Below, piece after piece: positions 1-16,338 of a DNA stretch of 33,438 nucleotides (position 1 is the first letter of the stretch; the number at the start of each line of letters is the position of its first letter). The notes under the pieces were generated by a model. The model was given only the letters and a program-made list of their open reading frames with translations, had not been told where the DNA came from and did no database searches. The DNA lies in the NCBI GenBank assembly GCA_965366365.1, contig CBDUEV010000031.1, forward strand, positions 1 through 33,438. Reading direction: 5' to 3'. This DNA is from an uncultured Acidimicrobiia bacterium. GTDB lineage: Bacteria > Actinomycetota > Acidimicrobiia > Spongiisociales > JAENVV01. The position numbers and the translations under genes are program-made.

Positions 1-242
1 CCCGGGCCAATCTCACCAACGAATCCGTCGAACTCGACGCCGCCTATCTGGCCCAGCTCAGCAACGATGCCATTCCGGCGATCGTGAAGTATCTGGCCAC
101 AGGCGACCTCGACTGCCCCTCGGCACACGAACTGGTCGACGCCACCCTCCTCTCGCCGGCACCGCACGATTGGCGATCGGCGAGCGTCAGTGACGTCCGA
201 GCCGAATCTGCGCTGGCGGGCCTGCCCGACTGCACGGAGTGA
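1..242 (+). CDS. 3' fragment of an unknown protein-coding gene, truncated at the window start. The C-terminus reads ...AIVKYLATGDLDCPSAHELVDATLLSPAPHDWRSASVSDVRAESALAGLPDCTE*.
   Basis: Open frame (codon phase 3) from the window edge to TGA at 240-242. Third-position GC bias is typical of this genome. It is not in the ORF track because there is no start codon. Confidence 0.4.
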   Translation, partial: RANLTNESVELDAAYLAQLSNDAIPAIVKYLATGDLDCPSAHELVDATLLSPAPHDWRSASVSDVRAESALAGLPDCTE

Positions 243-321
243 ACCGCAGAGATGACCCTTCGGCGACCCGCATGAGCCGGTCTCCTTCGATATCGTCTCG
301 GCTGAACGAAAGGAAACCCAC

Positions 322-522
322 ATGCCCGTGATGATCACCGAAGATCCAGACCTCGTTCCTCTCTGCCCACACTGCGATCAGGAACTGCGCGAGATCGTGG
401 GTAGGACACCCAAGACCCGTGGAGCGGCGGCCTTCATGTTCGGCAGGCGCACCGTGTACGCCTGTCCCTCCTGCCGAAAGGTTCTCGGCGTGTCCCATCG
501 CAAAGGCTTCTGGATGGGCTGA
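322..522 (+). CDS. Small zinc-ribbon protein (66 aa) with two CxxC pairs (CPHC...CPSC)
   Basis: ORF with ATG start and an AAAGGAAA Shine-Dalgarno-like sequence 5-7 nt upstream. There are four Cys in two CxxC pairs about 27 aa apart. GC3 is coding-like. Confidence 0.45.
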   Translation: MPVMITEDPDLVPLCPHCDQELREIVGRTPKTRGAAAFMFGRRTVYACPSCRKVLGVSHRKGFWMG

Positions 523-531
523 TCGCCGACG

Positions 532-2388
532 TCAGCCATCCATGGCACGGTGCAAGAACGCTGCCATCTGCCCCCGAGACACGAAATCGTCGGGGCAGAA
601 CATGGTGTTGGCGGGAGGGTTGCATCCCTTGGTGACGCCCGCCGTGCCCAACCGGTCGATGTCGTCCTCGAAGACCGAGTTGTCGTCGTCGACGAACAAG
701 TCCCCACCACCGTCATCGGAAAAGCCAAAGGCGCGGACCAGGAAGGCAGCCATCTGCCCCCTCGTGACGAGCGCGGCCGGACAGTACATGGTGTTGGCGG
801 GAGGGTTGCATCCCTTGGTGACGCCCGCCGTGCCCAACCGGTCGATGTCGTCCTCGAAGACCGAGTTGTCGTCGTCGACGAACAAGTCCCCACCACCGTC
901 ATCGGAAAAGCCAAAGGCGCGGACCAAGAAGGCAGCCATCTGCCCCCTCGTCACGAAATCGGCCGGACAGAACAGGGTGTTGGCGGGAGGATTGCAGCCC
1001 TGGGTGATGCCCTCTGCGGCAAGCCACTCGATGTCGTCCTCGAACACCGATCCATCGTCGTCGCTGAAGGTGCCGACACCGGCGGGCACGGTGGTCGTCG
1101 TGGTCGTCGTGGTCGTCGTGGTCGTCGTGGTGGTGGGCGCCGGGAGGGTGGATATGTCGAACACGTACACGGCACCCGCACTGGCGCCGTTTTCGTTCGA
1201 GTCGCCGGGTGACCCGACCGCCACGGTATATCCCGAGACTGCCACGTCGTGACCGAAGACATCGAACGCTTCGGGCGCAGGTGCCTCCAGCACCTCGCCC
1301 GGCATCCAATCCCCGCTCACGGATCGCTCATAGACGTAGGCAGCCCCGGCATATCCATCGGCGTTCGGAGCCCCCACCACGAGCAGGTCACCGTCTACGG
1401 CGACAGAAGCTCCGAAGGCCGGTGTGGCGCTGCCGCCTGGCCAGAGGGTGTCCTCGAGAGCGTAGACCGCCCCGTCCCAGCGATAGACCCACACAACGCC
1501 GGTGCCGATTCCGTTCGGGTTAATCGCCAGGGCATCACCGATGACGAGGAGGTCTTCGTCCATGGCCACACCACCGTGGTCCACGGAGATCTTCTGGATC
1601 TGGTGCCAGTCACCGAAGTTCTCGAAGACGTATACGGCGCCCTCGGCAGACACTGCCAACCTGTCGCCGTCAACGGCGACGTCCCATCCGAACTGGAGGT
1701 CGTCGCGCGGGTCTTCGGGGAAGACCCAGTCGCCGTCGACTTCGACCCGTCCCAGGAGATCAGCCCACTCTTCGCCCGGTGGGCAGCCCTCGATGTCGTC
1801 GCAGTACACGCTGGCGAAGGGGCCGCCTGCCGCCATGCTGCCGTTCAGGTCGACTGAGTCGCCAAAGAACTCGCTGCGGTAGAAGCCGTACTCCCATGCC
1901 GCGGATGCCACATCTCCATCCACCCACTCGAGCACGATCGCCACCCCCTGCATATAGAGCGACCCACCGTCGACCACCGGATGCAGCGGCGCTCCGACCA
2001 CGGTGGTCGTTCCCTCGATGGCCACGTCATTGCCGGCCATCCAGGGGGCTGTCTCGACCAGGGGGTCGTCCGTGTAGAAGTTGATCTTGTTCTTGTTGTC
2101 CCACCCCGTGGTCGTCTCACGCACGTAGGTGATCGAACCCCGGCTGTCAGCGCCGTCGTAGTCGTCGAACGGTGCACCGACGATCATGCCCGACCCGTCC
2201 AGGTCAACCGCGTATCCGAACTGGTCACCTGGCTCGCCAAAGCCGTCCAGAACGACCTCCTCGAGGCTGGCCGCATCGACCGAGCGAGCGGGAAGGAGCC
2301 CCAGCGATGCCACCACGACGGCCACCACCCCGGCTGCAACCCATCGAAGTCGTCGGTATGGAACCGGCGTCTGGTGGTGGAAACCCAT
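532..2388 (-). CDS. Secreted FG-GAP (integrin-alpha-like) repeat protein with a poly-Thr linker and three C-terminal SLH-like repeats
   Basis: AGGAGG Shine-Dalgarno precedes ATG at 2386-2388; the ORF-track GTG at 2406 is less likely. The N-terminus is signal-peptide-like (PYRRLRWVAAGVVAVVVASLG, possibly Tat). There are multiple FG..VA..GD-LLVGAP...G.AYVF motifs. A T15 linker is followed by 3 x ~62-aa repeats F.DD....F.DDI..L...G.T.GCNPPANT.YCP...VTRGQMAAFLVRA, matching the SLH pattern. Confidence 0.75.
   Translation of the reverse strand: MGFHHQTPVPYRRLRWVAAGVVAVVVASLGLLPARSVDAASLEEVVLDGFGEPGDQFGYAVDLDGSGMIVGAPFDDYDGADSRGSITYVRETTTGWDNKNKINFYTDDPLVETAPWMAGNDVAIEGTTTVVGAPLHPVVDGGSLYMQGVAIVLEWVDGDVASAAWEYGFYRSEFFGDSVDLNGSMAAGGPFASVYCDDIEGCPPGEEWADLLGRVEVDGDWVFPEDPRDDLQFGWDVAVDGDRLAVSAEGAVYVFENFGDWHQIQKISVDHGGVAMDEDLLVIGDALAINPNGIGTGVVWVYRWDGAVYALEDTLWPGGSATPAFGASVAVDGDLLVVGAPNADGYAGAAYVYERSVSGDWMPGEVLEAPAPEAFDVFGHDVAVSGYTVAVGSPGDSNENGASAGAVYVFDISTLPAPTTTTTTTTTTTTTTTVPAGVGTFSDDDGSVFEDDIEWLAAEGITQGCNPPANTLFCPADFVTRGQMAAFLVRAFGFSDDGGGDLFVDDDNSVFEDDIDRLGTAGVTKGCNPPANTMYCPAALVTRGQMAAFLVRAFGFSDDGGGDLFVDDDNSVFEDDIDRLGTAGVTKGCNPPANTMFCPDDFVSRGQMAAFLHRAMDG
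601..1100. repeat. Three tandem ~186-bp repeats (copies at 601, 787, 973). The first two are near-identical and encode the SLH-like modules.
   Basis: Direct DNA repeats with a 186-bp period were seen (catggtgttggcgggagggttgcatccc... recurs at 601 and 787, with a diverged copy at 973). The period of 62 codons keeps the reading frame. Confidence 0.85.
1091..1135. repeat. 9-bp microsatellite (gtggtcgtc) x4 plus a variant, encoding the poly-Thr linker
   Basis: Perfect 9-bp tandem copies at 1091, 1100, 1109 and 1118, and a variant at 1127. The unit length is a multiple of 3. Confidence 0.8.
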
Positions 2389-2598
2389 GGCGTCCTCCTG
2401 TCTCACGGAGGAGCGTTCAGGCTGACCGTACCGAGAGAGGGGATCCGACCCGCCGCCGGCTCCGGGCCACGATCGGCCCTTCGCCTGCCCGCATCCTCAC
2501 TGAACTCCCATACCCAGGGTGCACACAGTGAGGCGAAGCGGACTAGAGCCTTAGGTCAGAGTCGCCGGGGCCCGCCGTGCGTCGGCCCGGCCGGGTCC

Positions 2599-3954
2599 CT
2601 ACCTGTCCACGTCTCCGAGGACCGGGTCGAGGCTCGCCAAGGAGGCGATGGTGTCAGAGATGATCGAGTCGGCCAAGAGGATCGGCAGCGCCTGGAGATT
2701 GGCGAAGGAGGGTGCCCTGGTGTGCATTCTGAGCGGCTTGGCGCCGCCATCCGAGACGATGTAGCACCCGAGTTCGCCACGGGGTGACTCGATGGCGACA
2801 TACGCTTCGCCTTCGGGGACCTTGAACCCCTCCGTATAGATCTTGAAATGATGGATGAGGGCTTCCATCGACTCGTCGATCCTCTTGCGAGGCGGCGGCG
2901 TGATCTTGCGGTCCTCGGTCTTGTAATCGCCGAGGGGCATGGACTCGGCAGCCTGCCGGACGATCTTCAACGACTCTTCGATCTCGTGCACCTTGACCCG
3001 GTACCGATCGTAGGAGTCGCCCCGCTCTCCAACCACGACATCGAAGTCGTATTGCTCGATGCCCGAATACGGGGCCATCTTGCGCAAATCGTGGGCGAAT
3101 CCGGTGGAGCGGAGCGTTGGTCCCGTAATGGAGTGCGCCAGGCATTCCTCGGCGGTGATGATGCCGACATCTCGGGTCCGACGCAGCCAGATGGGGTTGG
3201 CCTTGAGGAGATCCTCGTATTCGGCCAGCATCGGCGGGAGAGCCTCGAGGATATCCTCGACGTCGGCTTCCCATCCGTCGGGCAGATCGGCCGCCACCCC
3301 GCCCGGTCGAATGAAGTTGTGGTTCATCCGCAGGCCGGTTGTCTTCTCGAAGAACGCCAGGATGCGCTCGCGGTCACGGAAGCCGTACAACATCATCGAG
3401 AGGGCTCCCACGTCCATCCCGTTGGTGGCGAGCGCCACCAGGTGGCTGGCCACCCGGTTCAGCTCCGACAGCATGATCCGAATCGCCTGAGCGCGCGGGG
3501 GGACCTCGATACCGAGCAACTGCTCGACCGCCAAGGAGAAACACAGCTCGTTGTGCATCGGGGCGAGGTAGTCCATGCGAGTCACGTTGGTCGGCCCCTG
3601 CATGAAGGTGAGCTCCTCGGCGGTCTTCTCCATGCCGGTGTGGAGGTAGCCGATGATCGGCTTGACCCGTCGAACGACTTCGCCCTCGAGTTCGATGTTG
3701 AGCCGCAAGACCCCGTGCGTCGAGGGATGCTGAGGACCCATGTTGATGATCATGCGTTCGTCGGAGTCGATCTGCTCGTCGTAGAGAACGTCGTCGACGA
3801 CTCGGGTGCCCAACTGTTCGATGAGCCGGCCACCGGTGTCGTCCGGCTTGAGTTTCTGAGCACCCTCGTCGGTGCCACCCACGAGCCAGTCGGGCTCCTC
3901 CGTTCCGGAGACCCAGACTTCCTTGGTGCGTCGCTCGCCGCGTGTGTCAGTCAT
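2599..3954 (-). CDS. nuoD: NADH-quinone oxidoreductase subunit D (49-kDa subunit)
   Basis: Hallmark NuoD sequence (MIINMGPQHPSTHGVLRL..., ...RMHTRAPSFANLQALP...). The ATG at 3952-3954 overlaps the nuoC stop (TGATG). The ORF-track start at 4035 over-extends into nuoC. Confidence 0.93.
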   Translation of the reverse strand: MTDTRGERRTKEVWVSGTEEPDWLVGGTDEGAQKLKPDDTGGRLIEQLGTRVVDDVLYDEQIDSDERMIINMGPQHPSTHGVLRLNIELEGEVVRRVKPIIGYLHTGMEKTAEELTFMQGPTNVTRMDYLAPMHNELCFSLAVEQLLGIEVPPRAQAIRIMLSELNRVASHLVALATNGMDVGALSMMLYGFRDRERILAFFEKTTGLRMNHNFIRPGGVAADLPDGWEADVEDILEALPPMLAEYEDLLKANPIWLRRTRDVGIITAEECLAHSITGPTLRSTGFAHDLRKMAPYSGIEQYDFDVVVGERGDSYDRYRVKVHEIEESLKIVRQAAESMPLGDYKTEDRKITPPPRKRIDESMEALIHHFKIYTEGFKVPEGEAYVAIESPRGELGCYIVSDGGAKPLRMHTRAPSFANLQALPILLADSIISDTIASLASLDPVLGDVDR

Positions 3955-4511
3955 CAGGTCACCCGGTTCGCTTCTTTGAACTGCACCGGCACGGACCCGA
4001 CGGCGTAGTCCTTGCGGAGAGGATGACCCACCCACTCATCGGGCATGAGGATCCGAGTCATGTCGGGATGGTCATCGAAGCTGATCCCGAAAAGGTCGTA
4101 GATCTCTCGCTCGAAGAAGTTGGCTCCGGGGTAGACAGGCACGAGGGATGGACAGGTCGGGTCGTCGGCATCGACGGGGATCCGCGCTCGCAGGCGCAGG
4201 CCGTGCTGGACGGAGAGCAAATTGGCCACGACCTCGAACCGCGTTCGCTTCTTGCCCAGGTAGTCGACGGCCGTGACGTCGGCGGCCATTTCGAAACCCG
4301 CCTCGTGTGCGGCCGTCGCGAAGGCTCGCCAGGTCTCCTTGGGAACCATCACCACGTCTTGTCGAGACGAGAGCATCCACTCGACATCGCCGAAGGGCTC
4401 GATGAGGTTCTTCAGAACGTCGTGGTCAGGAAGTGCTCGTTCCGGTTCGACAGGCGATTCGGTTTGGGTCTCTTCTGTTGCAGTCTCGTCAGTCACGGGC
4501 CAGCTCCCCAC
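3954..4511 (-). CDS. nuoC: NADH-quinone oxidoreductase subunit C (30-kDa subunit)
   Basis: NuoC motifs (FEVVANLLS..., [33 protein letters not shown]). GTG start at 4511, or alternatively GTG at 4496. It overlaps the nuoB 3' end. Confidence 0.92.
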
Positions 4512-4962
4512 TCGTGATCTTGTCCTGCAGCGTCAGAATGCCGTGGATGAGCGACTGAGGCCCGGGCGGGCAACCGGGGACGTAGACATCGACTGGCACG
4601 ACCTGGTCCACTCCCTGCACGAGCGCGTAGTTGTTGAACATGCCGCCCGTCGACGCGCAGGCACCCATCGAGATGACCCACTTGGGCTCGGGCATCTGGT
4701 CGTAGACCTGACGCAGCACCGGAGCCATCTTCTGAGACACCCGGCCCGCCACGATCATCAGGTCTGCCTGGCGCGGGGAGGCCCGAAAGACCTCCATGCC
4801 GAAACGGGCCAGGTCGTAGTGCGCCGTGCCCGTCGCCATCATCTCGATGGCGCAGCATGCCAGGCCGAACGTAGCGGGAAACATCGAGCGGGTGCGGGCC
4901 CACCGAGAAACCTTGTTGAGGTTCGTGAGCAGGAAGCCGGGAGGAGTGGTGGCCTGTGCCAT
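4489..4962 (-). CDS. nuoB: NADH-quinone oxidoreductase subunit B (20-kDa, [4Fe-4S] N2 subunit)
   Basis: [10 protein letters not shown]...[12 protein letters not shown]....[42 protein letters not shown]...VPGCPP. The ATG is directly adjacent to the nuoA stop. Confidence 0.95.
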
Positions 4963-5394
4963 CTAGGCGGCCCCGATCTTGGCCTGCTCCGGAGAGATGT
5001 CGCGCTGGATGCGACGCTCGCGCAGTGGCTGATTCCAATCCAAACCCCCGCGACCCCACACATACCCCAAGGTCTCCAGGACCAACACGGTGAAGATCCC
5101 GATCTCCAGAACGCCTAGCCATCCGAACTCGGGGTTGGGGAAGAGGACGGCCCACGCGAAGAGGAAGATCATCTCAACGTCGAAGATGACGAAGAGCATC
5201 GCCACGAGATAGAACTGGACCGGGAAGCGGTTCCGTGCCTCCGTCTCGGGAACGATGCCACACTCGTAGGGGGCGAGTTTCTCGGCGGTCGGTTTCTTCG
5301 GCGATACGAGGTATGCCAGCGACAGCGCTGCCACGACGAAGCCCACAGCCAACAGGAACATGATTGCAATCGGCAGATATGCCGGAAGGTCCAA
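4963..5394 (-). CDS. nuoA: NADH-quinone oxidoreductase subunit A
   Basis: YECGIVPETEARNRFPVQFYLVAMLFVIFDVEMIFLFAWAV. TTG start at 5394 with an AAGGAG Shine-Dalgarno 7 nt upstream. The N-terminal length matches actinobacterial NuoA. Confidence 0.9.
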   Translation of the reverse strand: MDLPAYLPIAIMFLLAVGFVVAALSLAYLVSPKKPTAEKLAPYECGIVPETEARNRFPVQFYLVAMLFVIFDVEMIFLFAWAVLFPNPEFGWLGVLEIGIFTVLVLETLGYVWGRGGLDWNQPLRERRIQRDISPEQAKIGAA

Positions 5395-5501: not shown

Positions 5502-5831
5502 CTACCCCACCCGCTCGCCACAGATGCACTGGTACTCGACGCCTTCAGGACCCGGCTCGGCCTGGTTGTACCGGAAGAAGACGAGAGCCTCGAGGGTGTC
5601 GCAGTGCGCCGCCAAGGCGACCTCTTCCAGCTCACGGGCCATGGGATTGAGCGCCTGGCGCAAACGGTGGGCTTGGTTGCGTATCTCGTCGAGCTGGTGT
5701 CGGGAGGTGGCCAGCTCGAACAGCGAGCCGCCGGTTCGGCGTAGTTCGTCGTGGCGACGCCACCGCGCCAGGAGCTCTTCGAATGTCGCTTCGAGAACCG
5801 GATGCAAAGACAGCCGCACGCCTTTCCTCAT
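5502..5831 (-). CDS. Hypothetical small protein (109 aa)
   Basis: The ORF exactly fills the gap between nuoA and the reductase gene. No clear Shine-Dalgarno and no recognisable domain. GC3 is moderately coding-like. Confidence 0.3.
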   Translation of the reverse strand: MRKGVRLSLHPVLEATFEELLARWRRHDELRRTGGSLFELATSRHQLDEIRNQAHRLRQALNPMARELEEVALAAHCDTLEALVFFRYNQAEPGPEGVEYQCICGERVG

Positions 5832-5897: not shown

Positions 5898-7148
5898 TCA
5901 GCCTGTCAGAGAGCGCGGGGCCAACCGAATCATGCCTTCGAGCATGTGGTAGGCCCGATCTCCGATATGGCGGTCTTCTTCCTCGAGGAGGTTGGCCATC
6001 ACCTTGAGCACCCATTCCATGAGCGGCTTCGAGTGGAGCCCGGTGTGTGCCAGCGTCCGCATGACCGACGGGTAACCGATCAGTTTCACGAAGAGACGGG
6101 CCATCCGGTAGTAATCGCCATACGTCTCATCGAGTTCGGCCGGGTAGCGCTGAAGGAGGCCCAGATCATCGGCGACGAGCGCCTCGTGAATGTGCTCGGC
6201 GGCGAGACGCCCGGTCTCGTATCCGTAGGCGATGCCCTCTCCGTTCCACGGATTGATCGCCCCCATGGCGTCGCCCACCACCACCCAGTTGGCACCGGCG
6301 CGCGGGCCCTTGGAGAAGGACATCAGCAGCTTGCCGCCTTTGGGTTCGGAGAGTTGCGCCTCCTCGGACAGTTCCCAATGCTTCGGCGCAGCCTCGACAT
6401 AGTTCGCCATCATCGTGGTGGTGTTGACGTCCTTCCAATGCCGGAAGGTGGACAACAGGCCAACCCCGACATTGACGGTGCCGTCCCCCAGTGGAAACAC
6501 CCACCCATAGCCGGGCATGGAGTTCCCTGACTTGTCGCGAATATCGAGCTGGCTCTCCATGAACCCGTCTTGGGACATGGGTGAGGAGAAATAGCCGCGA
6601 GCCGCCAGACCCAACGGGTAATCCTTGTTTCTGACCGTCCCGAGCAGGCGACCGAAACGAGACGTCGACCCGTCGGCCACGACAACGACCTTGGCGCTCA
6701 TGATCTCGGTCTCGTCACCCGACGAGAGCGTGACGCCGGCCAGGCGGCCGTCGATCACGTGCGGCTTGGCTGTGGTCTTTGCTCTGATGACCGCCCCCTC
6801 CTTCTCGGCGAGGCGCGCCACCTGATCATCGAGGTCCATGCGCCGGATCACGCCGCCCCAGTTCGGGTACTTCGAATGCTGTGGCCACTCGAGTTCGAGA
6901 TGCAGCGAATCGCCCGCATAGGAGCGCAAGCCGACGATCTTGTGGAACTCCTGGCTGGCGAAATCGAACCCCATTTTCTGCAGCTCATAGATCGACCGGG
7001 GGGTGAGTCCGTCGCCGCAGGTCTTCTCGCGGGGGTACTCGCTCTTCTCGACCAGGACGACCGAATGTCCCGATCGCGCCAACCAATAGGCTGCCGCCGA
7101 GCCGGCCGGCCCACCACCCACCACCACAACATCAGGAGTGTTCGTCAT
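5898..7148 (-). CDS. Geranylgeranyl reductase family FAD-dependent oxidoreductase (MenJ-like menaquinone reductase candidate)
   Basis: N-terminal DVVVVGGGPAGSAAAYWLARSGHSVVLVEK...PREKTCGDGLTPRS is the GGR-family FAD fold. ATG start at 7146-7148. Confidence 0.85.
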   Translation of the reverse strand: MTNTPDVVVVGGGPAGSAAAYWLARSGHSVVLVEKSEYPREKTCGDGLTPRSIYELQKMGFDFASQEFHKIVGLRSYAGDSLHLELEWPQHSKYPNWGGVIRRMDLDDQVARLAEKEGAVIRAKTTAKPHVIDGRLAGVTLSSGDETEIMSAKVVVVADGSTSRFGRLLGTVRNKDYPLGLAARGYFSSPMSQDGFMESQLDIRDKSGNSMPGYGWVFPLGDGTVNVGVGLLSTFRHWKDVNTTTMMANYVEAAPKHWELSEEAQLSEPKGGKLLMSFSKGPRAGANWVVVGDAMGAINPWNGEGIAYGYETGRLAAEHIHEALVADDLGLLQRYPAELDETYGDYYRMARLFVKLIGYPSVMRTLAHTGLHSKPLMEWVLKVMANLLEEEDRHIGDRAYHMLEGMIRLAPRSLTG

Positions 7149-7242: not shown

Positions 7243-7260
7243 TTGTGAAACCAGTCACAA
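7243..7260 (+). promoter_or_regulatory. Rex operator (ROP-like) TTGTGAAACCAGTCACAA, overlapping the rex start codon, with a TATATT -10-like hexamer at 7233-7238
   Basis: 17 of 18 positions match the actinobacterial Rex consensus TTGTGAA-N4-TTCACAA (by direct comparison). The GTG start of rex at 7245 lies inside the site, and TATATT lies 7 nt upstream of GTG. Confidence 0.6.
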
Positions 7261-7868
7261 TCCCGAGAGCCACCGTGGCCCGATTGCCTCTGTACCTCCA
7301 GTGCCTGGAAGGACTCGGCACCGAAACGCCCACCGTCTCTTCACAAGAGCTGGCGGTTATCGCCAACGTCAACTCGGCCCAGGTCCGCAAGGACCTGTCC
7401 TACCTCGGCTCGCACGGCGTCCGTGGCGTCGGCTACCAGCGGGCGGCCTTGGTCGACCTGATCCGACAGGAACTGGGACTCACCCACGAGTGGCCGATCG
7501 TCATCATCGGGGCCGGGAACCTCGGTTCCGCCCTCGCCAACTACGGCGGTTTTGCTGCAGCTGGATTCACCCTGGTCAGCGTCTACGACGTGGATCACAC
7601 CAAGATCGGGTCGGCCGTCGGTGGCATCACCGTGCGGAGCCTCGATCAGCTCGAAGCGGATGTCGCCGCACGGGACGTGGCGATGGGCGTGGTCACGACC
7701 CCCGCGGCGGCCGCCCAGGAAAGCGTCAACCGCCTCGTGGCGGCAGGGGTTCGTTCGATCCTCAACTTCGCCCCGTTCGTGGTGCAGGTCCCGAAGGGTG
7801 TCGACGTCCGGCATGTCGATCTTTCGACCGAACTTCAGATTCTCAGCTTCTATCGGGCTCGTCGCTGA
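7245..7868 (+). CDS. rex: Redox-sensing transcriptional repressor Rex
   Basis: IPRATVARLPLYLQCL... is the Rex N-terminal wHTH signature, and the Rossmann fold follows (VIIGAGNLGSALANY). GTG is the only in-frame start upstream of the conserved IP.ATV motif. There is no room for a leader or Shine-Dalgarno, so the mRNA is probably leaderless. Confidence 0.9.
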   Translation: MKPVTIPRATVARLPLYLQCLEGLGTETPTVSSQELAVIANVNSAQVRKDLSYLGSHGVRGVGYQRAALVDLIRQELGLTHEWPIVIIGAGNLGSALANYGGFAAAGFTLVSVYDVDHTKIGSAVGGITVRSLDQLEADVAARDVAMGVVTTPAAAAQESVNRLVAAGVRSILNFAPFVVQVPKGVDVRHVDLSTELQILSFYRARR

Positions 7869-7882: not shown

Positions 7883-8242
7883 CTATTCGATCTGGCGGTT
7901 CTGTTCCTGTTCGAAACGGCTCAGCGCCACCATGAACATGACGAACAGAATCGCTGCGCCGAACATGAACGTCAGCGGCAGGATGCGGATCTCGAAGGCG
8001 TTCAAGCCTTCGAAGTTGGTCGGGCGCGGGCCGCGCGGGGCGTACAGCACAAACAACAAGGAGTTGAGCGCGCTCCATCCGAAGATTCCCGCCCCGGAGA
8101 CCAGAAACGCCAGCCTCTTACCGAGGTTCGTCGCCAGGATGAGGTAAGCCGTGCCGAAGAACACCAGGAAGCTGACGATGGTGAGCAGAATGCCGGTGAA
8201 CATCAGGTTGGCAGAGAGAATCTCTCTCATGAGTTCGCGCAT
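7883..8242 (-). CDS. Small hydrophobic membrane protein (119 aa, about 3 TM), last gene of the bc-type operon
   Basis: The ATG lies 4 nt after the diheme cytochrome c stop. The protein is strongly hydrophobic. No recognisable family. Confidence 0.55.
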   Translation of the reverse strand: MRELMREILSANLMFTGILLTIVSFLVFFGTAYLILATNLGKRLAFLVSGAGIFGWSALNSLLFVLYAPRGPRPTNFEGLNAFEIRILPLTFMFGAAILFVMFMVALSRFEQEQNRQIE

Positions 8243-8245
8243 GGC

Positions 8246-9673
8246 CTACCTCAACCTCTCGCCGCGTAGGTATTGAATGAGCAAATCGAGATCGGCTTCC
8301 GAGAGCACTTGCCCGAACGCCGGCATGTAGCCTCGCCCGATCCCGTTGACGCCATAACCCACGCCCTCCTCGGAACCCTTACCCAAGAAATCCTTCATGT
8401 CGTCGGCCGTGAGGAACTGAACGTTGGCTCGGCCATCCCACAGGGCCGGTCCAAAGGCGCCGGAGCCGATAGGGGCGGTGTAGGCGGGACCTGACGAGTA
8501 GCCGGCCGTGTGGCAGCGTGCGCAATACGACTGATACAAGCCCACCGCCCGCTCGGCCTCGGCCAGGTTGCCGTCGAAGGTGGCGTCGGCGACAGCCTGG
8601 AGGTCGACGGCATAGTCCCGGTTCTCTTGGGCGGCGAGAAGGAACTCCAACCCGGCTTCCGCTTGCTCGCGCAGCACGTCGGCGCGTTCGACGGTCAGGG
8701 TGAGGCCGTTGACCTCCTCCTCGAGCTTGGCGACGGCGCCGCTGACCAGGACCAGGTCTCCTTCGCCGGTGCCGAGTGTGTCGGGGTTCTCGACGTCGGC
8801 CAAGATGGCTGCCAGCCCCGGGTAGCCCGTGGCGGCAGCCTCGGTGGTGATGGCGGTGATGGCGGCCTCGGCCGTGTCAGAAACACCGTCTTCGTCGGTG
8901 TCGATACCTTCTCCGGCGGCATCGAGCGCACTTCGACCGGATGCGGCCAGAGGTTCCAGGACGGCCAGGAAGCCTGGAGCGTCGTCGATCTCCTGCAGCA
9001 GAGCCATCTGCGCTTCGATCGAGCCTTCCACCCGTGCGTCGGCCTCGGCGAGCTCGCCGAGCGCAGCGCTCACCCGCCCGTCCACCTGGGCGAGGGCCTC
9101 CTCCTGCGAAATCTGAATCGACTTCAGATACTCGAGCACTTCGTCGATCTGCTGCTCGTTCATGGGGCCGCCGCCGTCGGTCCCCCAGGCGGGCATCGGC
9201 GAATTGGGGCGGCCGTAGACGAGCCAGAATGTGATCTCCTCGTCGTCGTACCGGTAGGTGATGTCATTGAGGGCGGGAGCCGTCCACGCGACGGTGACGC
9301 CGCTGCGCTTGTCCACATAGCCGGCGGCGCCTCCGACGAGATCCGGACCGTGACACGAAGCGCACGCGAACTCTTCCACGTGCTCCAAGCCGCGCTCCAA
9401 GCCCTCTTCCTCGAACTGATGGACGAATCCTTCCTGGCGATCGATCTCCCCGAGCCAGTACACGGGGATCGAGATGGCGAGGACAGCCGAGAGGATCACC
9501 GACACCGACAGCACTCGATCGAGGCGACGGTTCTCGAGTTCGTCGTCGGTCTTGTACGGGTCGAGGTTGGGAGCGATCTCGTTGGAGCTCCGGCCGCGCA
9601 TCCCGGAGGCGACCAGGAAGGCCAACCAGCCCAACGCGCCCAGGGCTACAACGACGATGACGATACTGCTCAT
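8246..9673 (-). CDS. Membrane-anchored diheme cytochrome c (QcrC-like) with a long acidic insertion
   Basis: N-terminal TM, two CxxCH motifs (CASCH, CARCH), and MPAWG/MPAFG Met-ligand motifs. The ATG lies 3 nt after the Rieske stop. Confidence 0.85.
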   Translation of the reverse strand: MSSIVIVVVALGALGWLAFLVASGMRGRSSNEIAPNLDPYKTDDELENRRLDRVLSVSVILSAVLAISIPVYWLGEIDRQEGFVHQFEEEGLERGLEHVEEFACASCHGPDLVGGAAGYVDKRSGVTVAWTAPALNDITYRYDDEEITFWLVYGRPNSPMPAWGTDGGGPMNEQQIDEVLEYLKSIQISQEEALAQVDGRVSAALGELAEADARVEGSIEAQMALLQEIDDAPGFLAVLEPLAASGRSALDAAGEGIDTDEDGVSDTAEAAITAITTEAAATGYPGLAAILADVENPDTLGTGEGDLVLVSGAVAKLEEEVNGLTLTVERADVLREQAEAGLEFLLAAQENRDYAVDLQAVADATFDGNLAEAERAVGLYQSYCARCHTAGYSSGPAYTAPIGSGAFGPALWDGRANVQFLTADDMKDFLGKGSEEGVGYGVNGIGRGYMPAFGQVLSEADLDLLIQYLRGERLR

Positions 9674-9676
9674 GCG

Positions 9677-10552
9677 TTATCCACCGATACAGCTCGGACC
9701 TTGGGGGTACTTCGCAGATTTCACGACGGCACGCTCTGACTCGATGACCTGGCCGGTCTTGATGATGAAACGGCCATCCCTGTCTTCAACCACGAAGCGA
9801 TCGAGATTCCGAGGGGCCGGGCCGGCTTCGTACTCTCCCGAGACGTTGTATTTGGACCCGTGGCAGGGGCACTCGAACCCCTGCGAGGCATCGCACCAGG
9901 GAACACGGCAGCCCAGGTGAACGCATTTCTGGAAGAGCGCCATCAAACCGCCCACGGCCACATTGGCTTCGCTGAATTGCGACCCGGAGAGAGCGTCATC
10001 GCCGATGGGCACGATCCAGGATTTCGCTTCCGGCCAGAACACCGGGGTGATCGATCCGTCGGCCTGGAAAATCTGATTCCGGATCTCGGTCACGTCCCCC
10101 GCATCCACGTCCGACCCGAATCCACCCTTCACGCGTGGCCAGGCAAAGGAGAAAGAAGCCAAACCGACCAGACCGAGGAAGCCGAAGAAGCTTCCGGCCA
10201 GAGCACGGGTGAAGAACATCCGGCGAGTCACGCCGGCCTCCATCGGCGACAGTTCGACGACCTGGCGCACCACCTCCGACCGGACCGCCGGGGCCGAAGG
10301 CTCACTCGGGGTTTCGGTATCCGGGGCCACCGTCTCCGCCGGCGCGACCGTGTCGGCCGATGCTTCGGTCGCCGCCCGGGCAGCGACGATCCCGGCTGGG
10401 ACTCCCTTGTCGGCCTTGCGGGCATCGCGATCGAGCGCGTCTTTCCAAGCGGCATCGCGGGTGCTTTGCCGGTAGGCGATTCCGAAGGCCGCCAAGGCGG
10501 CGAATACCGCCACGGCCCCTACGAGAAGGAAGATCAGGTTCTGCGTCGTCAT
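9677..10552 (-). CDS. Rieske [2Fe-2S] iron-sulfur subunit of the bc-type complex
   Basis: CVHLGC...CPCHGS boxes and N-terminal TM helices. ATG at 10550-10552 overlaps the upstream stop (ATGA). The ORF-track start at 10849 over-extends. Confidence 0.9.
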   Translation of the reverse strand: MTTQNLIFLLVGAVAVFAALAAFGIAYRQSTRDAAWKDALDRDARKADKGVPAGIVAARAATEASADTVAPAETVAPDTETPSEPSAPAVRSEVVRQVVELSPMEAGVTRRMFFTRALAGSFFGFLGLVGLASFSFAWPRVKGGFGSDVDAGDVTEIRNQIFQADGSITPVFWPEAKSWIVPIGDDALSGSQFSEANVAVGGLMALFQKCVHLGCRVPWCDASQGFECPCHGSKYNVSGEYEAGPAPRNLDRFVVEDRDGRFIIKTGQVIESERAVVKSAKYPQGPSCIGG

Positions 10553-11778
10553 TCGAGGTTCACCCAGTCCTTGATGTCGTCGAAGTAGATGCCGTCCGAC
10601 CATGGGTAGGTGAAGTTGAAGCCAGGACCTCGGAACAACACACCCAGGATGGTGAGCATGGCGGCCCCCATGATGAAGTACGTGTACATGAAGATGGCGA
10701 ACTTCCTGTCCGAGGGCTTGTTGGACGGATTCCGGTCGACGTAGGGAATCGCCATGAATCCGACGAGCCCCACGATGGTGGGAACCGTCACACCGGCGAT
10801 CTGCGGGTCGAAGTAGGAGAGAAGTTCCTGAAGTCCGAGGAAGTACCACGGCGCCTTGGAGGGGTTGGGGGTGGCGTTGAAATTGGCGGCTTCCAGCAGC
10901 GGCGCCTGCAGACTGACCGACATCACGATCAGAACGGCGGTCACGGCGAGGAGCACGGCGAACTCGGCGATCATGAGATGCGGCCAGGTGTTCACCTTGT
11001 CGGTGGGCTCAGCCTTGACCTGTTGAATCGCTTTCGCTTTGACGACCGTCAGCAAGCGCTGGGTGCGGACACCCTCTGGCGCGGTTTCGGCTGGAGCGGT
11101 TGGCCGGACTGCCGTGGCGACCGCCGCCCCCGCTCCACCCGCCGCCGGGGTTTCGACCGCGGAGGCCGCGGGCGCATCCTCTTGCGGGATCGGCAGGTCG
11201 ACCACCTCGGCCTCAGGTGCCGGTGGGGCCTCAGGTGCCGATGGGGCGGCCGGTTCAGGGGTTGCCGGTTCAGCATCTGCCGGTTCAGCATCTGCCGGTT
11301 CAGGGGTTGCCGGGGTTGGGGCCGCAGCGGGAGTCTCGGGTGCCTCGTCTCCGAGCATCTCTGCCAGTACTGCGGCTTCTGAGGCGCCTGTGGCTTTCGC
11401 CTTGGCCTCGACCGACCGTTGCAGCAGCGAAGCCGGCATTCCGGCGCGCTCGGCTGCGGCGGCATAGTCCACGGGACCGCCGGCCGGCGCCGGGGCAGGG
11501 GCGGCTGGCGCTGCCGGCTCCGGTGCCGGGGCCTCGGGTTCGGGAGCCTTCGGTGCCGGCGCCTCGGGTTCTGGCGCCTCGGGTTCTGGCGCGGTCGGCT
11601 CGGCGGGCGGCGCAGCTTCGGTCGATGCAGGAGTCGTCGCCTCGGTGGCCGCAGGGGCCACATCGATCGGAGGACCTTCGCCCTTCATCTCGGCGAGCAC
11701 CTGCTCGACCGGAATGCCGAGGGCTTTCGCCTTCGCTTCGGCAGACCGTCGGAGGAGATGCTCTGGGATGTCAGCCAT
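10549..11778 (-). CDS. Cytochrome b C-terminal (subunit IV / PetD-like) protein with a long N-terminal extension. The extension is two copies of a ~35-aa helical module plus Pro/Ala/Glu-rich linkers.
   Basis: C-terminal WPHLMIAEF...SKAPWYFLGLQELL...P (PEWY-type Qo motif, variant APWY). AAGGAG Shine-Dalgarno 10 nt upstream of ATG 11776-11778. Low-complexity PEPEAP repeats were seen. Confidence 0.8.
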   Translation of the reverse strand: MADIPEHLLRRSAEAKAKALGIPVEQVLAEMKGEGPPIDVAPAATEATTPASTEAAPPAEPTAPEPEAPEPEAPAPKAPEPEAPAPEPAAPAAPAPAPAGGPVDYAAAAERAGMPASLLQRSVEAKAKATGASEAAVLAEMLGDEAPETPAAAPTPATPEPADAEPADAEPATPEPAAPSAPEAPPAPEAEVVDLPIPQEDAPAASAVETPAAGGAGAAVATAVRPTAPAETAPEGVRTQRLLTVVKAKAIQQVKAEPTDKVNTWPHLMIAEFAVLLAVTAVLIVMSVSLQAPLLEAANFNATPNPSKAPWYFLGLQELLSYFDPQIAGVTVPTIVGLVGFMAIPYVDRNPSNKPSDRKFAIFMYTYFIMGAAMLTILGVLFRGPGFNFTYPWSDGIYFDDIKDWVNLE

Positions 11779-11790
11779 CGATGGTGCTCC

Positions 11791-12579
11791 TTACAGCGGC
11801 CCTGAGATGCCGCCGTCCTTGCGGACTCGCCAGAAGTGTACGGCCATGAATATGACGATGATGAACGGGAAGAAGAGGACGTGGAGGACATACCAGCGGA
11901 GGATGGTGTCGGCCGACACTTCCACCGCGCCCAGCAGCAAGAACTTCACCTGGCCGCCGAACACCGGCACGAAGCCCGCCATGTTGGTCCCCACTGTCAC
12001 GGCCCACAGGGCGAGTTGATCCCACGGGAGCAGATATCCGGTGAACGAAAGCAAGAGGGTGAGCAGGAGGAGGATCACACCCACGACCCAGTTGAACTCG
12101 CGGGGAGGCTTGTAGGCGCCGTGATAGAAGACCCGGGACATGTGCAGGAACACCGACAAGACCATGAGGTGGGCGCCCCATCGGTGCATGTTGCGCACCA
12201 GAGAACCGAAAGCCACGGCCGTGGACAGCTCTGCGGTGTCTGCGTAGGCCGCTTCCGCCGTCGGGGCGTAATAGAACATCAAGAAGATGCCGGTGATGGT
12301 CAGCAGGATGAACAAGAAGAAACTGATCCCACCCAGGCACAATGTATAGGAGAGGCGCACCCCATGTCGCTTCACCTTCACCGGATGAAGGTGATAGAGG
12401 ACGTTGTTCATGACGACATAGCTCCGGTTGCGCGGAGAGTCCGAATAGCCCTTCTTGAAAGGGGATCCTGGACGGAGAACCGACTCCATCACCTGTGAAC
12501 CATGGAGCCGACTCCACAGGTCGCTGCCGGCGGTCTTCGCCTTCTCGAGGAGGCCGGTATTTCCGTTTTCGTTCGCCAA
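11791..12579 (-). CDS. Cytochrome b6-type (split cytochrome b, N-terminal four-helix part)
   Basis: His pairs in helices B and D ([17 protein letters not shown]; [22 protein letters not shown]). TTG start with GGAG upstream; the exact start is uncertain. Confidence 0.88.
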
Positions 12580-12599
12580 GTTCTGCTCCGTCTTCCTGA

Positions 12600-13049
12600 T
12601 TACATTCGCAGACCGTAGACGTAACCGTTCTTGTGGTCACGTTGGCCTGTGTCGATTTCCCAGGGCGCAAGGCCGGAGGCGGCCGCCTCATCGGACAAGG
12701 AACCCTCGAACTTCCCCAGAGTGATGACACCCGTCGGGCACCGATCGATGCAGAGAGCGCACCTCGTGCACTCATCCTCGTCCACGAGAAAGAACCCTTT
12801 GGCGTCGGGATCTGCCGACGGGTTCGCCACCCCGTGGGCTTCCGCGATGGCGTCGAGAGAGAGGTAGTGGATACATTTCCAGGGACAGATGTCGACGCAG
12901 CCCTCACAGAGGATGCACTCGGCCTGGTCGATGTGCAGGAACTGCTTGGGTTTCACGGCCGCCGTCAGGAAGGATCCGTCAACCACCGCCAACTGATAGT
13001 CGTCACGGATGGGCGGTATCTCGAACCAGACGTCACGGGGGGCAGCCAT
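12600..13049 (-). CDS. 2x[4Fe-4S] dicluster ferredoxin-like protein
   Basis: Two CxxCxxCxxxCP motifs ([24 protein letters not shown]). The ATG abuts the stop of the upstream membrane protein. Confidence 0.85.
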
Positions 13050-13688
13050 CTACTGCTCCGGCTCCGACTTGACGACCCTGGTCAAGGGTCGGCCATACGG
13101 CGAAACCTTGGCCACCTCGGTGACCGGACCACCCTTACCGAAATCCTGAATCTTGTAGGCGAACACGATGGCGGCCCCGAGCATGACCATGTGGTATCCG
13201 CCCGAGATGGCGTCTTTGACCACGGCCAAGCTGATGCTCACTTCATTGTTGAGGACGAGCCATCGCGGCAAGGTGAAGGCTTTTTGGGGAGTCCACCCGA
13301 GCGGGCCTTGGGCCAGGTTGAGCCATTCCGACGGAATGATCCCGAAGAAGACCACCAACTCGAACCAAGCGATGAGAGACACGAAAGAGGCACGGGCCCA
13401 CGTCATCGGTTTCCCGATCACCCACAACAACAGACACGCCACCACGATGAGCTGTGAGCCGCCGATGGCCACGATCTGCCCGAGTGTCACAACCGCGAAA
13501 TGGCGAGGGATCCAGCCGAGGTAGTCTACGTCGACAGGGACATCGACCCCATCGATGAATACCGTTTCCGGGAAATTGGCGTAGTGGGCGACGACGACGC
13601 CGAGGGCAATCGCCACGAAACCAGCCAAGAACAAGGTCGCGCCGGCAACCCGTCGCTGCGATTCGGTCATGTTTGCCAGTCGGTTCAT
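13050..13688 (-). CDS. Polytopic membrane protein of unknown family, first gene of the bc-type operon
   Basis: 4-5 predicted TM segments. Start chosen at ATG 13686-13688 (MNRLANM...); the ORF track gives TTG at 13727. No recognisable motif. Confidence 0.5.
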   Translation of the reverse strand: MNRLANMTESQRRVAGATLFLAGFVAIALGVVVAHYANFPETVFIDGVDVPVDVDYLGWIPRHFAVVTLGQIVAIGGSQLIVVACLLLWVIGKPMTWARASFVSLIAWFELVVFFGIIPSEWLNLAQGPLGWTPQKAFTLPRWLVLNNEVSISLAVVKDAISGGYHMVMLGAAIVFAYKIQDFGKGGPVTEVAKVSPYGRPLTRVVKSEPEQ

Positions 13689-14062
13689 GTGCGTTCCAAC
13701 AATCCACCGTGCATGGTCGAAGGGCAACTAGCCCACTCTCAGTCCCGAGACCCGACCAGCCTGGCTGTCAGCGTGAGCCGATCGTGTTGCCCAGATTACT
13801 AGCAGATATCCTCTTCGGCTCTCAATCCCGACGCCCGCATTCAGGCTGCTTTGACGGACCGCCCGGCGCACGGCAAAAATGAGCCGACGCCATTCGATGG
13901 GTGTCCGGGGCGAGTCCGTTATGATTCGGGCGCTTCCGCGCATGGCATGTTGAGGCGGCGCCGGCCAATCGGCGAAGCAGCAAGCGGCTATGGTCCGCCG
14001 ATCGGGCGGCTCGCCGGGAGCCGTGTATGTGATCGAGGCACACGAAACCGAGGAGCGCTGGT

Positions 14063-15502: not shown

Positions 15503-16338
15503 GCGAACATTCGGCAGCCGTGGCCGCCGCGCTCGGCGTCCCCGAGGACCTCGTCATCAAGTCGGCCACGGCGCGGGCCCAGGCTTCAGGAAGCACAACG
15601 GAGGAAGTCCTGGCGGCCTGGAGCGGCGGCGGAGAGGTCCCGGCGGCCGCTCCGAGCGCCACGCCCCCCGCCACCGACGAGGCCCAGGCGGCGACCCCAC
15701 CGGCTACCGATCCCGCTCCGGCCGACATGTCCCCGGAACCCGGGGAAGCCGGCGCCGAATCACCGCTTCCTGTGGAGGGCGCCCCTGTCTCGTCACCTGG
15801 CGGATCTGGCCCGGTCACCGTCATCGATCGCCGGGCGAAGGCCGCCCCGATACTGACCGGCCGCCGCGATCGACCCCTCCTGGTACTCGCCGGCCTCGTG
15901 GCATTGTTCGTCCTCGGCGCCGTCTTTGCCGTCAGCCTGCCCGGGGCTGAGGCTCGGAACCTGGCGGCCGATCAGCTGCCCGGAACCACTCCTCAGCTCA
16001 GCGAATTGGCCCAGGAAGGTAGAGAGATCTATCTCACGGAAGGTTGCTTCTACTGCCACACCCAACTCGTACGATCGGTGGTGACCGACGTCGGGCTGGG
16101 CACGGTGACCGAACCCGGGACCGCACCCAGCCTGTCACCCGAGACGTATGGCTTCCAGCGGGTCGGACCCGATCTCACCCACGTTGGATCGCGTGAGCCG
16201 ACCAACGATGCGGCCTGGCTGCGTAGCTACCTGGAAGACCCCACGGCCGAGCGACCGGGGACGCTCCAGCCCAGCTACGCGTACCTGTCGGACAATGAGA
16301 TGGACGCACTCGTGCAGTTCCTCCTGGAATCGGAGTAG
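15499..16338 (+). CDS. CcoO-like membrane-anchored monoheme cytochrome c with an N-terminal helical module
   Basis: GTG start overlaps the CcoN-like stop (GTGA) and is preceded by GGAGG. One TM helix, then REIYLTEGCFYCHTQLVR...GPDLTHVGSR...YLSD (CcoO-like). The ORF-track entry 14851..16338 is the same frame, over-extended. Confidence 0.8.
   Translation: MSEHSAAVAAALGVPEDLVIKSATARAQASGSTTEEVLAAWSGGGEVPAAAPSATPPATDEAQAATPPATDPAPADMSPEPGEAGAESPLPVEGAPVSSPGGSGPVTVIDRRAKAAPILTGRRDRPLLVLAGLVALFVLGAVFAVSLPGAEARNLAADQLPGTTPQLSELAQEGREIYLTEGCFYCHTQLVRSVVTDVGLGTVTEPGTAPSLSPETYGFQRVGPDLTHVGSREPTNDAAWLRSYLEDPTAERPGTLQPSYAYLSDNEMDALVQFLLESE

Follow-up and report, generated by a model that had tools for sequence, protein, structure and literature searches.

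A complex I gene cluster probably interrupted between nuoD and nuoE in an uncultured Acidimicrobiia bacterium

Complex I of the canonical Nuo/Nqo type, as in Mycolicibacterium smegmatis (8E9G) and Thermus thermophilus (4HEA, 2FUG), has 14 core genes in a canonical order. Both split and single-cluster arrangements of these genes are reported across prokaryotes, the split arrangement being common, while single clusters dominate in the Actinomycetota subclade (PMC12361115). In "Candidatus Actinomarinales," members of the Acidimicrobiia, a heliorhodopsin gene always lies between separate 14- and 11-subunit nuo operons, as part of a conserved unit that also includes an iron transporter (PMC7771536; bioRxiv 10.1101/2021.02.01.429150). 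Small blocks of A, B, and C (and sometimes D) genes set apart from the rest also characterize the cyanobacterial and plastid ndhC-K-J arrangement and other 11-subunit complexes; NDH-1, Fpo, and the second "Ca. Actinomarinales" cluster are without NuoE, NuoF, and NuoG and use other electron donors. The locus described here resembles canonical complex I in having all 14 core genes in canonical order but differs in that they form two blocks with 12.3 kb of unrelated genes between them; like the split clusters of other prokaryotes, it encodes a full Nuo set that is not all clustered together. We assign a probability of about 0.9 to the reading that its nuoABCD genes are the first block of an ordinary 14-subunit Nuo complex I, whose ancestral nuoA-N operon was interrupted at the nuoD-nuoE junction.

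The sequence analyzed (here, the window) comprises 33,438 nucleotides (nt) from an uncultured member of the Acidimicrobiia with a G+C content of about 64%. It contains nuoA, nuoB, nuoC, and nuoD, all on the minus strand and recognized by Pfam with E-values from 1e-30 to 1e-112. The first gene, nuoA (positions 4963 to 5394; 143 amino acids [aa]; PF00507, E = 2.5e-32), starts with TTG, has an AAGGAG Shine-Dalgarno sequence 8 nt upstream, and is called identically in public assemblies. The ATG of nuoB (4489 to 4962; 157 aa; PF01058) abuts the nuoA stop with a gap of 0 nt, nuoC (3954 to 4496; PF00329, E = 2.4e-41) overlaps nuoB by 8 nt in the public gene call, and the nuoC stop shares 1 base with the ATG of nuoD (2599 to 3954; 451 aa; PF00346, E = 7e-112). 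The public call gives nuoC 180 aa, and an alternative GTG start at 4511 would give 185. These junctions confirm the tight coupling of the four genes noted in the preliminary description. Pfam scans of 30 large open reading frames (ORFs) spread across the window identified no further nuo genes, and searches with relatives' NuoE-N proteins yielded no tblastn match across all 33,438 bases.

Curated NCBIfam cutoffs assign three of the four proteins to the Nuo type. NuoD exceeds the cutoffs of TIGR01962 (540.3 bits; cutoff, 459.35) and NF004739 (535.4; cutoff, 360), NuoB those of NF005012 (248.7; cutoff, 116) and TIGR01957 (237.2; cutoff, 142.7), and NuoC that of TIGR01961 (127.5; cutoff, 122.45); NuoA falls short of its equivalog cutoffs (113 versus 155) yet passes PF00507. 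Neither the NdhH model NF005649 (359.1 bits; cutoff, 583) nor the FpoD model NF040602 (339.2 bits; cutoff, 600) is satisfied by NuoD. The top matches among solved structures are likewise to canonical complex I: for NuoD, the M. smegmatis (8e9g_D) and T. thermophilus (2fug_4) chains, at 454 bits, and for NuoB, the same two complexes, at 233 to 236 bits, with cyanobacterial NdhH and NdhK scoring far lower than Nuo.

Residues expected at the functional sites are also in place. Cysteines C36, C37, C102, and C131 of NuoB align with the cluster-N2 columns of T. thermophilus Nqo6 (2fug_6), whose ligands are Cys45, Cys46, Cys111, and Cys140, and these columns are also conserved relative to M. smegmatis NuoB (8e9g_B). 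In NuoD, H80 (within QHPSTHG) and Y129 (within RMDYL) align with the quinone-site residues His38 and Tyr87 of Nqo4 (2fug_4). The N- and C-terminal CxxC nickel-binding motifs that mark the large subunit of group 4 [NiFe] hydrogenases (Ech, Mbh, and Hyc) are missing from NuoD, there being no cysteines at QHPSTHG or in the C-terminal LDPVLGDVDR. An Mbh-type chain (6u8y_L) is the weakest of the listed PDB matches to NuoD, at 209.8 bits.

The remaining genes were located by walking contigs of the same population, on which nuoE-F-G-H-I-J-K-L-M-N occur on the same strand as nuoABCD. Contig L102 (ERZ25043460 NODE_162), which differs from window positions 1 to 4878 by 3 mismatches in 4,878 overlapping bases, has the end of nuoD at 2280 and the start of nuoE at 14597, followed by F, G, H, I, J, K, and L; a second single contig (L103) spans nuoB to part of nuoG; and nuoL, nuoM, and nuoN occur on three others (L110, L111, and L112). 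Positions 14597 to 18986 of L102 encode PF01257, PF01512 plus PF10589, and PF13510 plus PF10588, PF22117, and PF00384, corresponding to NuoE, NuoF, and NuoG. The distance from the nuoD stop to the nuoE start is 12,316 bp, placing nuoE about 9.7 kb beyond the left edge of the window. The complete nuoA-N set (14 of 14 core genes) is thus present on contigs of one population, the source being a metagenomic population and not a closed genome. Of the alternatives that the preliminary description offered for a cluster stopping after nuoD, a split operon is the one that proved correct: with nuoE-N 12.3 kb downstream on the same strand, what looked like a special, self-sufficient module is one half of a divided operon. 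A window ending 10 kb before the second block can make an ordinary complex I resemble a truncated or exotic one.

A chimera of assembly or binning, in which the true nuoE directly follows nuoD, could also produce an apparent stop after nuoD. The DNA is of metagenomic origin, and in the nearest relative by NuoD (P0004, 86% identity) the two genes overlap. However, the exact NuoD protein occurs on 17 metagenome contigs, and the junction between nuoD and the next gene is identical in all six contigs shown, which come from independent assemblies of six different samples (ERZ25043435-62). The junction at the other end, between a serpin gene and nuoE, is present in five assemblies, being the same in L102 as in two contigs from other samples (L104 and L105). 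L102 and L103, from independent assemblies, each link nuoD to nuoE on one contig; the longest of the contigs listed for NuoD, for Kup (encoded between the two blocks), and for NuoJ is the same one, NODE_171 (87.9 kb); and G+C content is even across the joins, at 62 to 67%. An artifact can therefore be set aside almost entirely. The preliminary description had also allowed for a complete nuoA-N operon elsewhere, with an assembly break at this site. A complete set does exist, but it takes the form of two blocks sharing a single locus rather than of a second full operon, and it does not span an assembly break.

The genes upstream of nuoA point to the origin of the nuoABCD block. Directly upstream is an ORF of 105 aa and unknown function (5502 to 5819, minus strand, public gene call), which occupies the same position in L106 (57% identity) and L069 (47%) by tblastn; the gene tables list no Pfam family for this ORF, and its 109-aa version gave no hit in NCBIfam. 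It is preceded by a gene for a MenJ-like flavoprotein of the geranylgeranyl reductase family (5898 to 7148, minus strand), which scores 241 bits on TIGR02032 (cutoff, 158.8) and 311.8 bits on the MenJ model NF045655, under that model's cutoff of 700. A geranylgeranyl reductase-like gene is a conserved upstream neighbor of nuoA across the Acidimicrobiia. Next is rex, for a redox-sensing repressor (7275 to 7868, plus strand; 197 aa; PF06971 and PF02629), divergent from the reductase-nuoABCD strand. The neighborhood ahead of nuoA comprises, in sequence, genes for a Fer4 protein, cytochrome b6, a cytochrome b C-terminal protein, a Rieske protein, cytochrome c, and a 119-aa ORF, followed by rex and the reductase gene, and much or all of it precedes nuoA in many Acidimicrobiia with a contiguous nuoA-N (L028, L070, L093, and others). 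Because these neighbors (the bc-type complex, rex, and the reductase) are those of unbroken nuoA-N clusters in the class, nuoABCD is the positional ortholog of the first part of such clusters.

Sequence identities agree for the two blocks. NuoA-D are 76 to 91% identical to their counterparts in relatives, and NuoE, F, G, H, and I are 65 to 84% identical; for NuoE, NuoF, and NuoG, the range is 68 to 77%, and NuoF is 77 to 79% identical to the relatives' NuoF proteins used as queries (L010 among them). By these comparisons, the two halves diverge from relatives in parallel, and both are orthologous to the relatives' single operon.

These observations bear on a further suggestion in the preliminary description, that NuoA-D form a paralogous, Q-module-only copy that could pair with, for example, an F420- or ferredoxin-dependent module; a hydrogenase-type input is considered here as well, with the copy working apart from the real complex I. 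Seen in the window alone, the cluster does end at nuoD, and a second, 11-subunit nuo cluster without EFG is known in "Ca. Actinomarinales" (PMC7771536). This suggestion is not supported, on several grounds: nuoE-N lie 12.3 kb away on the same contig and strand, the neighbors are the conserved ancestral ones of a single nuoA-N operon, NuoD passes Nuo equivalog cutoffs and fails those of NdhH and FpoD, its closest homologs (76 to 86% identity) head complete operons, and no second NuoD-like sequence from the population was present among the homologs found. We consider such a paralog extremely improbable. Because nuoE, nuoF, and nuoG separate the insert from nuoH, the locus does not belong to the 11-subunit class of enzymes. 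The likeness to ndhCKJ raised in the preliminary description holds insofar as a small block is set apart, but it is superficial, given the NADH-oxidizing NuoE, NuoF, and NuoG here and the failure of NuoD on the NdhH and FpoD models. A 2x[4Fe-4S] protein encoded at 12600 to 13049 was considered as a stray NuoI, but it reaches 36 bits on TIGR01971 (cutoff, 113) and belongs instead to the conserved cytochrome b6/Rieske cluster, so this reading was rejected.

With nuoABCD read as the first block of a divided operon, the break falls between the quinone-reducing module (NuoB, NuoC, and NuoD) and the NADH-oxidizing module (NuoE, NuoF, and NuoG). The 12,316-bp interruption carries eleven unrelated genes in both orientations, six of them on the strand opposite to nuo. 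After nuoD, at the proximal edge of this interruption, there is a noncoding gap (2389 to 2598, minus strand) of 210 nt to an ATG at 2388, which is the start in public gene calls and has an AGGAGG Shine-Dalgarno sequence, or of 192 nt to a GTG at 2406, in keeping with the roughly 190 bp reported earlier. The first intervening gene, immediately downstream of nuoD, encodes a secreted 618-aa protein with FG-GAP_2 and SLH repeats (532 to 2388; PF14312, E = 3e-33; PF00395); it had been described as convergent but is on the minus strand, codirectional with nuoABCD. The second encodes a 66-aa ORF of unknown function (322 to 522, plus strand), called in all public assemblies of the population, and the third is a DUF4153 gene (488 aa) that the left end of the window truncates, leaving its 3' end at positions 1 to 242 (plus strand). 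The gene tables of L001 and L102 continue past this point with genes for heliorhodopsin, a 167-aa ORF product, a beta-lactamase-family protein, ORF products of 153 and 57 aa, Kup (K_trans), LPG_synthase_TM, and the serpin, after which nuoE-N begin.

A recently acquired mobile genomic island inserted into the operon would explain why the block is lineage specific: in about 85 other Acidimicrobiia loci, none of the eleven genes occurs next to nuo, barring a DUF4153 gene upstream of nuoA in L106, which is 39% identical to that in the block. The mixed gene directions would also fit an island. Other features argue against it, in that no tRNA gene was found at the block, no direct or inverted repeats flank it, no integrase or transposase domains are among its Pfam hits, its G+C content is indistinguishable from that of the flanks, and other, smaller inserts occur at the same junction in relatives. 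An island is accordingly unlikely, and the interruption looks more like something built up gradually, by accretion and rearrangement at a permissive site, than like a single mobile element.

Breaks at this seam recur in the class. From a GTDB contig search with a combined NuoD and NuoF query, in which the window's own species was absent and the top NuoD match was 82% identical (84% in a contig found separately), 65 Acidimicrobiia loci were resolvable; at least 16 of them are broken between nuoD and nuoE. The two genes are contiguous in 49 loci, are separated by a 633-bp gap in 3 and by 1.0 to 5.0 kb in 7, and have no nuoE within 10 kb in the remaining 6. These six, on OY762464.1, OZ242000.1, OZ244034.1, OZ253443.1, CBDCBK010000010.1, and CBDFJY010000002.1, carry nuoABCD but lack nuoE-N over that distance. 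Here and in those 16 or more loci, the departure from the single clusters that dominate the Actinomycetota subclade (PMC12361115) is specifically at this junction. The closest relatives by NuoD, P0004 and L106 (82%), both have contiguous nuoD and nuoE, and the filler between these genes in relatives (a 191-aa ORF, an OmdA-like ORF, a cyclase, and a PMI gene) has no homology to the intervening genes here. That breaks recur at this seam, with different filler each time, is a modest but usable observation on operon evolution and does not change what is known of how complex I works.

The heliorhodopsin gene gives the locus a further likeness to "Ca. Actinomarinales," in that it lies between two nuo blocks in a member of the Acidimicrobiia; here, however, it belongs to a set of eleven assorted genes inside the split of a single operon, and it is absent from every other nuo locus examined. 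It is improbable that its position is other than accidental, reflecting a recurrent link to complex I in this class, or, more modestly, that the nuoD-nuoE junction is a selectively tolerated breakpoint. Were the former true, a light sensor of unknown role would be tied to the expression or activity of complex I; were the latter, a dedicated leaderless promoter would allow independent dosage of the Q-module genes and those of the N-module and membrane arm.

The two halves would now constitute separate transcription units, with nuoE-N driven by a promoter of their own within the 279 bp that separate the serpin gene from nuoE. In this region, a GATTC(n18)GATCTTGTATCGT element, conserved with L010, L011, L016, and L026, places a TANNNT -10-like box 8 nt ahead of the nuoE ATG, which has no Shine-Dalgarno sequence before it. 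A box this close to an ATG lacking a Shine-Dalgarno sequence is a signature of leaderless actinobacterial mRNA, suggesting a separate leaderless nuoE-N transcript. Among split or contig-start loci, 13 of the 16 distinct sequences upstream of nuoE carry a TANNNT 5 to 12 nt before its start, as opposed to 1 of 45 where the nuoD-nuoE gap is 202 bp or less. No terminator-like site or hairpin was found after nuoD, and the gap downstream is predicted to fold no more stably than shuffled sequence does (z = +1.76). Sigma-70 consensus promoters upstream of nuoA and nuoE did not exceed shuffled expectation in an E. coli-type scan, which is ill-suited to high-G+C Actinobacteria. Subunits from the two blocks would join posttranslationally into one normal L-shaped complex; gene order is reported to be dispensable for complex I assembly in E. 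coli (Oppermann et al. 2022, as cited in PMC12361115). The recurrent breaks and the -10-like box fit a modular (Q-module/N-module) history of complex I, and they also fit a gene order that is dispensable for assembly.

Transcription of the nuoABCD block would start upstream; the reductase gene and the 105-aa ORF may share the transcript, and Rex may control it. A Rex-operator-like palindrome, TTGTGAAACCAGTCACAA (7243 to 7260), with 1 mismatch to TTGTGAAnnnnTTCACAA, lies within the 126 bp that separate the divergently oriented reductase gene and rex. No Rex operator was found upstream of nuoE at 2 or fewer mismatches. The palindrome is the sole match in the window at 3 or fewer mismatches, and similar boxes adjoin rex or nuoA in relatives.

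The window, with a G+C content of ~64%, holds four nuo genes on the minus strand, nuoA (4963-5394), nuoB (4489-4962), nuoC (3954-4496/4511), and nuoD (2599-3954), all recognized by Pfam matches with E-values of 1e-30 to 1e-112. The preliminary description of this DNA regarded the four genes as tightly coupled, and they are: there is zero gap between the nuoA stop and the nuoB ATG, nuoB and nuoC overlap by 8 nt, and the nuoC stop and nuoD ATG have one base in common. Also as described there, the cluster ends at nuoD: a Pfam scan of 30 large ORFs spread over the window detected no further nuo genes, and tblastn with the NuoE-N proteins of relatives as queries found no nuoE-N anywhere in it. The other ORFs include a Rieske/cytochrome b6-type complex, rex, a geranylgeranyl reductase-family gene (the reductase gene), haem-copper oxidase subunit I, and assorted unrelated genes. 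After a gap of 192-210 nt 3' of nuoD comes the gene for a 618-amino-acid (aa) FG-GAP_2 and SLH protein, which was originally called convergent but lies on the nuo (minus) strand and is thus co-directional. An identical NuoD protein occurs on 17 public metagenome contigs, and the nuoABCD-to-FG-GAP junction is the same in all six of those shown, each from a different sample; because one junction recurs in the contigs of six samples, we rejected an assembly artefact as the cause of the stop after nuoD. Apart from the orientation of the FG-GAP gene, the observation is real.

The FG-GAP protein gene (532-2388) specifies a signal-peptide-like N-terminus and 15 consecutive threonines, with three tandem 186-nt (62-aa) SLH-like repeats (~511-1068), the later copies being 86% and 69% identical to the first; protein length is 599-621 aa among assemblies of one population. 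Directly upstream of nuoA is a minus-strand 105-aa ORF (5502-5819) with no family match. Its position is also filled in two relatives, L106 (57% identity) and L069 (47%), and it may serve the nuo unit as an accessory or leader gene particular to the lineage.

All NuoD homologs are from Acidimicrobiia. A relative with a 76%-identical NuoD has an unbroken nuoA-N on a closed 3.67-Mb chromosome; in another, with an 80%-identical NuoD, nuoABCD is followed by a cyclase gene, a PMI gene, and then, 4.6 kb downstream, nuoE onward. A homology search with a relative's NuoF did not recover the window organism's own nuoE-N, which was reached by a contig walk through the gene for a Kup transporter, 8 kb beyond nuoD, and then NuoJ. 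The Kup look-up led to NODE_162, a contig of sample ERZ25043460 (L102), and to three further assemblies. L102 has three mismatches in its overlap with window positions 1-4878, indicating that the two derive from one population. On L102, nuoD ends at 2280 and a full-length nuoE starts from an ATG at 14597 on the same strand, a distance of 12,316 bp, followed by nuoF, G, H, I, J, K, and L; the step via NuoJ yielded nuoL, M, and N, then an unrelated ORF and putA. The nuoD-nuoE linkage is seen directly on two contigs, NODE_162 and NODE_931 (L102 and L103), and on NODE_171 (87.9 kb), also listed as the longest contig for NuoD, Kup through nuoN is visible. The earlier suggestion of a split operon is borne out, and the genes belong to an ordinary complex I with an interrupted operon. 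On L110, a contig with the nuoL/M/N end, the nuoE-N unit appears to finish with a 392-aa ORF (15773-16951) that has a faint bactofilin match and shares 11 nt with the end of nuoN; putA beyond it is convergent.

Whether the genes group with Nuo or with Fpo/Ndh/Ech-like complexes had been posed as a check, and the scores favor the former. NuoD exceeds the NCBIfam cut-offs of TIGR01962 (540 bits; cut-off, 459) and NF004739 (535 bits; cut-off, 360), as do NuoB for NF005012 and TIGR01957 and NuoC for TIGR01961, and NuoD falls below those of the NdhH (359 versus 583 bits) and FpoD (339 versus 600 bits) models. Comparison with solved structures places Mycolicibacterium smegmatis complex I (8e9g) and Thermus thermophilus Nqo4/Nqo6 at the top, with cyanobacterial and plastid NdhH/NdhK much lower and, for NuoD, an Mbh-type subunit last among the matches listed. 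In the structure alignments, NuoB keeps its four cluster-N2 cysteines (C36, C37, C102, and C131) and NuoD its quinone-site His (H80) and Tyr (Y129); NuoD contains no hydrogenase-type cysteine motifs. Judged from sequence, the window nuo genes belong with canonical Nuo.

The alternative proposed at the outset, a Q-module-only paralog served by another donor module, is unsupported, since the ancestral neighbourhood is kept and the two halves diverged in parallel. Upstream of nuoA lie genes for a 212-aa ORF, a 2x[4Fe-4S] protein, cytochrome b6, a cytochrome b C-terminal protein, Rieske, cytochrome c, and a 119-aa ORF, then, toward nuoA, rex and the reductase gene; many Acidimicrobiia with contiguous nuoA-N have much or all of this neighbourhood upstream of nuoA. 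Identities to the same relatives are 65-84% for NuoE-I and 76-91% for NuoA-D, indicating parallel divergence. These comparisons argue that nuoABCD here is an ortholog of single-operon nuo genes, not a paralog. Most or all of the conserved seven-gene cluster (7883-13727, minus strand) sits beside rex and nuo in many Acidimicrobiia loci examined. Its members, a 212-225-aa ORF of unknown function, a 149-aa 2x[4Fe-4S] protein, a 262-aa cytochrome b6, a 409-aa cytochrome b C-terminal/subunit IV domain protein, Rieske, a 475-aa multi-domain cytochrome c, and the 119-aa ORF, make up an unusual complex of the bc/b6 type to which a ferredoxin-like subunit has been added.

Eleven genes separate nuoD from nuoE. 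In order from nuoD they are FG-GAP/SLH, a 66-aa ORF, DUF4153, heliorhodopsin, a 167-aa ORF, a gene of the beta-lactamase family, ORFs of 153 and 57 aa, Kup, LPG_synthase_TM, and a serpin; FG-GAP/SLH, heliorhodopsin, and Kup share the nuo strand, and the other eight are on the opposite strand. A mobile element was considered and seems unlikely: the 12.3-kb block has no tRNA gene, flanking repeats, integrase or transposase domain, or compositional shift. It looks like the product of accretion and rearrangement at a break-tolerant junction. The heliorhodopsin gene (PF18761; L102 6285-7052) is ~1.4-2.2 kb beyond the left edge of the window. In "Ca. Actinomarinales," another Acidimicrobiia order, heliorhodopsin is always between two nuo operons (PMC7771536; bioRxiv 10.1101/2021.02.01.429150), whereas here it is between two halves of one. 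Because no heliorhodopsin homolog occurs near nuo in ~85 other Acidimicrobiia loci examined, its position is probably coincidental.

The order of nuo genes is reportedly, in work cited by a 2025 survey, not essential for assembly in E. coli. The survey itself finds that most complex I clades contain both "split" and single-cluster arrangements and that single clusters dominate in Actinomycetota (PMC12361115). A feature of this kind is therefore already known. A scan of GTDB species representatives with a chimeric NuoD+NuoF query returned 80 Acidimicrobiia-type loci, classified by tblastn. The nuoE gene is ≤300 bp from nuoD in 49 loci, 633 bp away in 3, and 1.0-5.0 kb away in 7, and in 6 loci, four of them on closed chromosomes, nuoE-N is missing from the 10 kb to each side (9 were too short to classify); query patterns bias the sampling, so these counts are descriptive only. 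The genes filling the gap vary by lineage. The two relatives nearest in NuoD identity both keep nuoD and nuoE contiguous: in P0004 (86%) the genes overlap by 4 nt, and in L106 (82%) they are 181 bp apart, with a Shine-Dalgarno sequence in between, and DUF4153 lies upstream of nuoA, not downstream of nuoD. The 6 loci that have nuoABCD but lack a nearby nuoE-N represent a second Acidimicrobiia clade, with 71-72% identical NuoD, and are on closed or near-closed chromosomes (L051, OY762464.1; L056, OZ242000.1; L059, CBDCBK010000010.1; L066, OZ244034.1; L067, OZ253443.1; L068, CBDFJY010000002.1). "Ca. Spongiisocius"-type relatives (L007-L009, 11366-13381) carry a 671-aa nuoE-nuoF fusion (PF01257, PF01512, and PF10589).

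The window organism and four other split lineages (L010, L011, L016, and L026) share a conserved stretch of 60 nt ahead of nuoE. The shared element, GATTC(A/G)G..., ~18 nt, (G/C)ATCTTGTA(A/T/G)(T/C)(C/G)T, 8 nt, ATGAGCTGG, sets a TANNNT hexamer 8 nt before the nuoE start codon, and no Shine-Dalgarno sequence precedes nuoE. TANNNT occurs 5-12 nt before the nuoE start in 13 of 16 distinct upstream sequences from split or contig-start loci and in 1 of 45 from loci whose nuoD and nuoE are ≤202 bp apart, where nuoE instead overlaps nuoD or has a Shine-Dalgarno sequence. In actinobacterial promoters, TANNNT at such spacing without a Shine-Dalgarno sequence is the geometry of a leaderless transcript, suggesting that nuoE-N would be read from its own promoter. 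No terminator-like structure follows nuoD, and transcription may read through from nuoD into the FG-GAP gene. Upstream of the nuoABCD block, a Rex-operator-like palindrome with one mismatch, TTGTGAAACCAGTCACAA (7243-7260), occupies the interval that separates rex from the divergently oriented reductase gene, at 15 bp upstream of the former and 95 bp upstream of the latter; no such box precedes nuoE of the window organism. Rex-operator-like boxes occur 33-45 bp before nuoA in three relatives (L077, L054, and L070) and 133 bp before nuoE in a split genome (L049).
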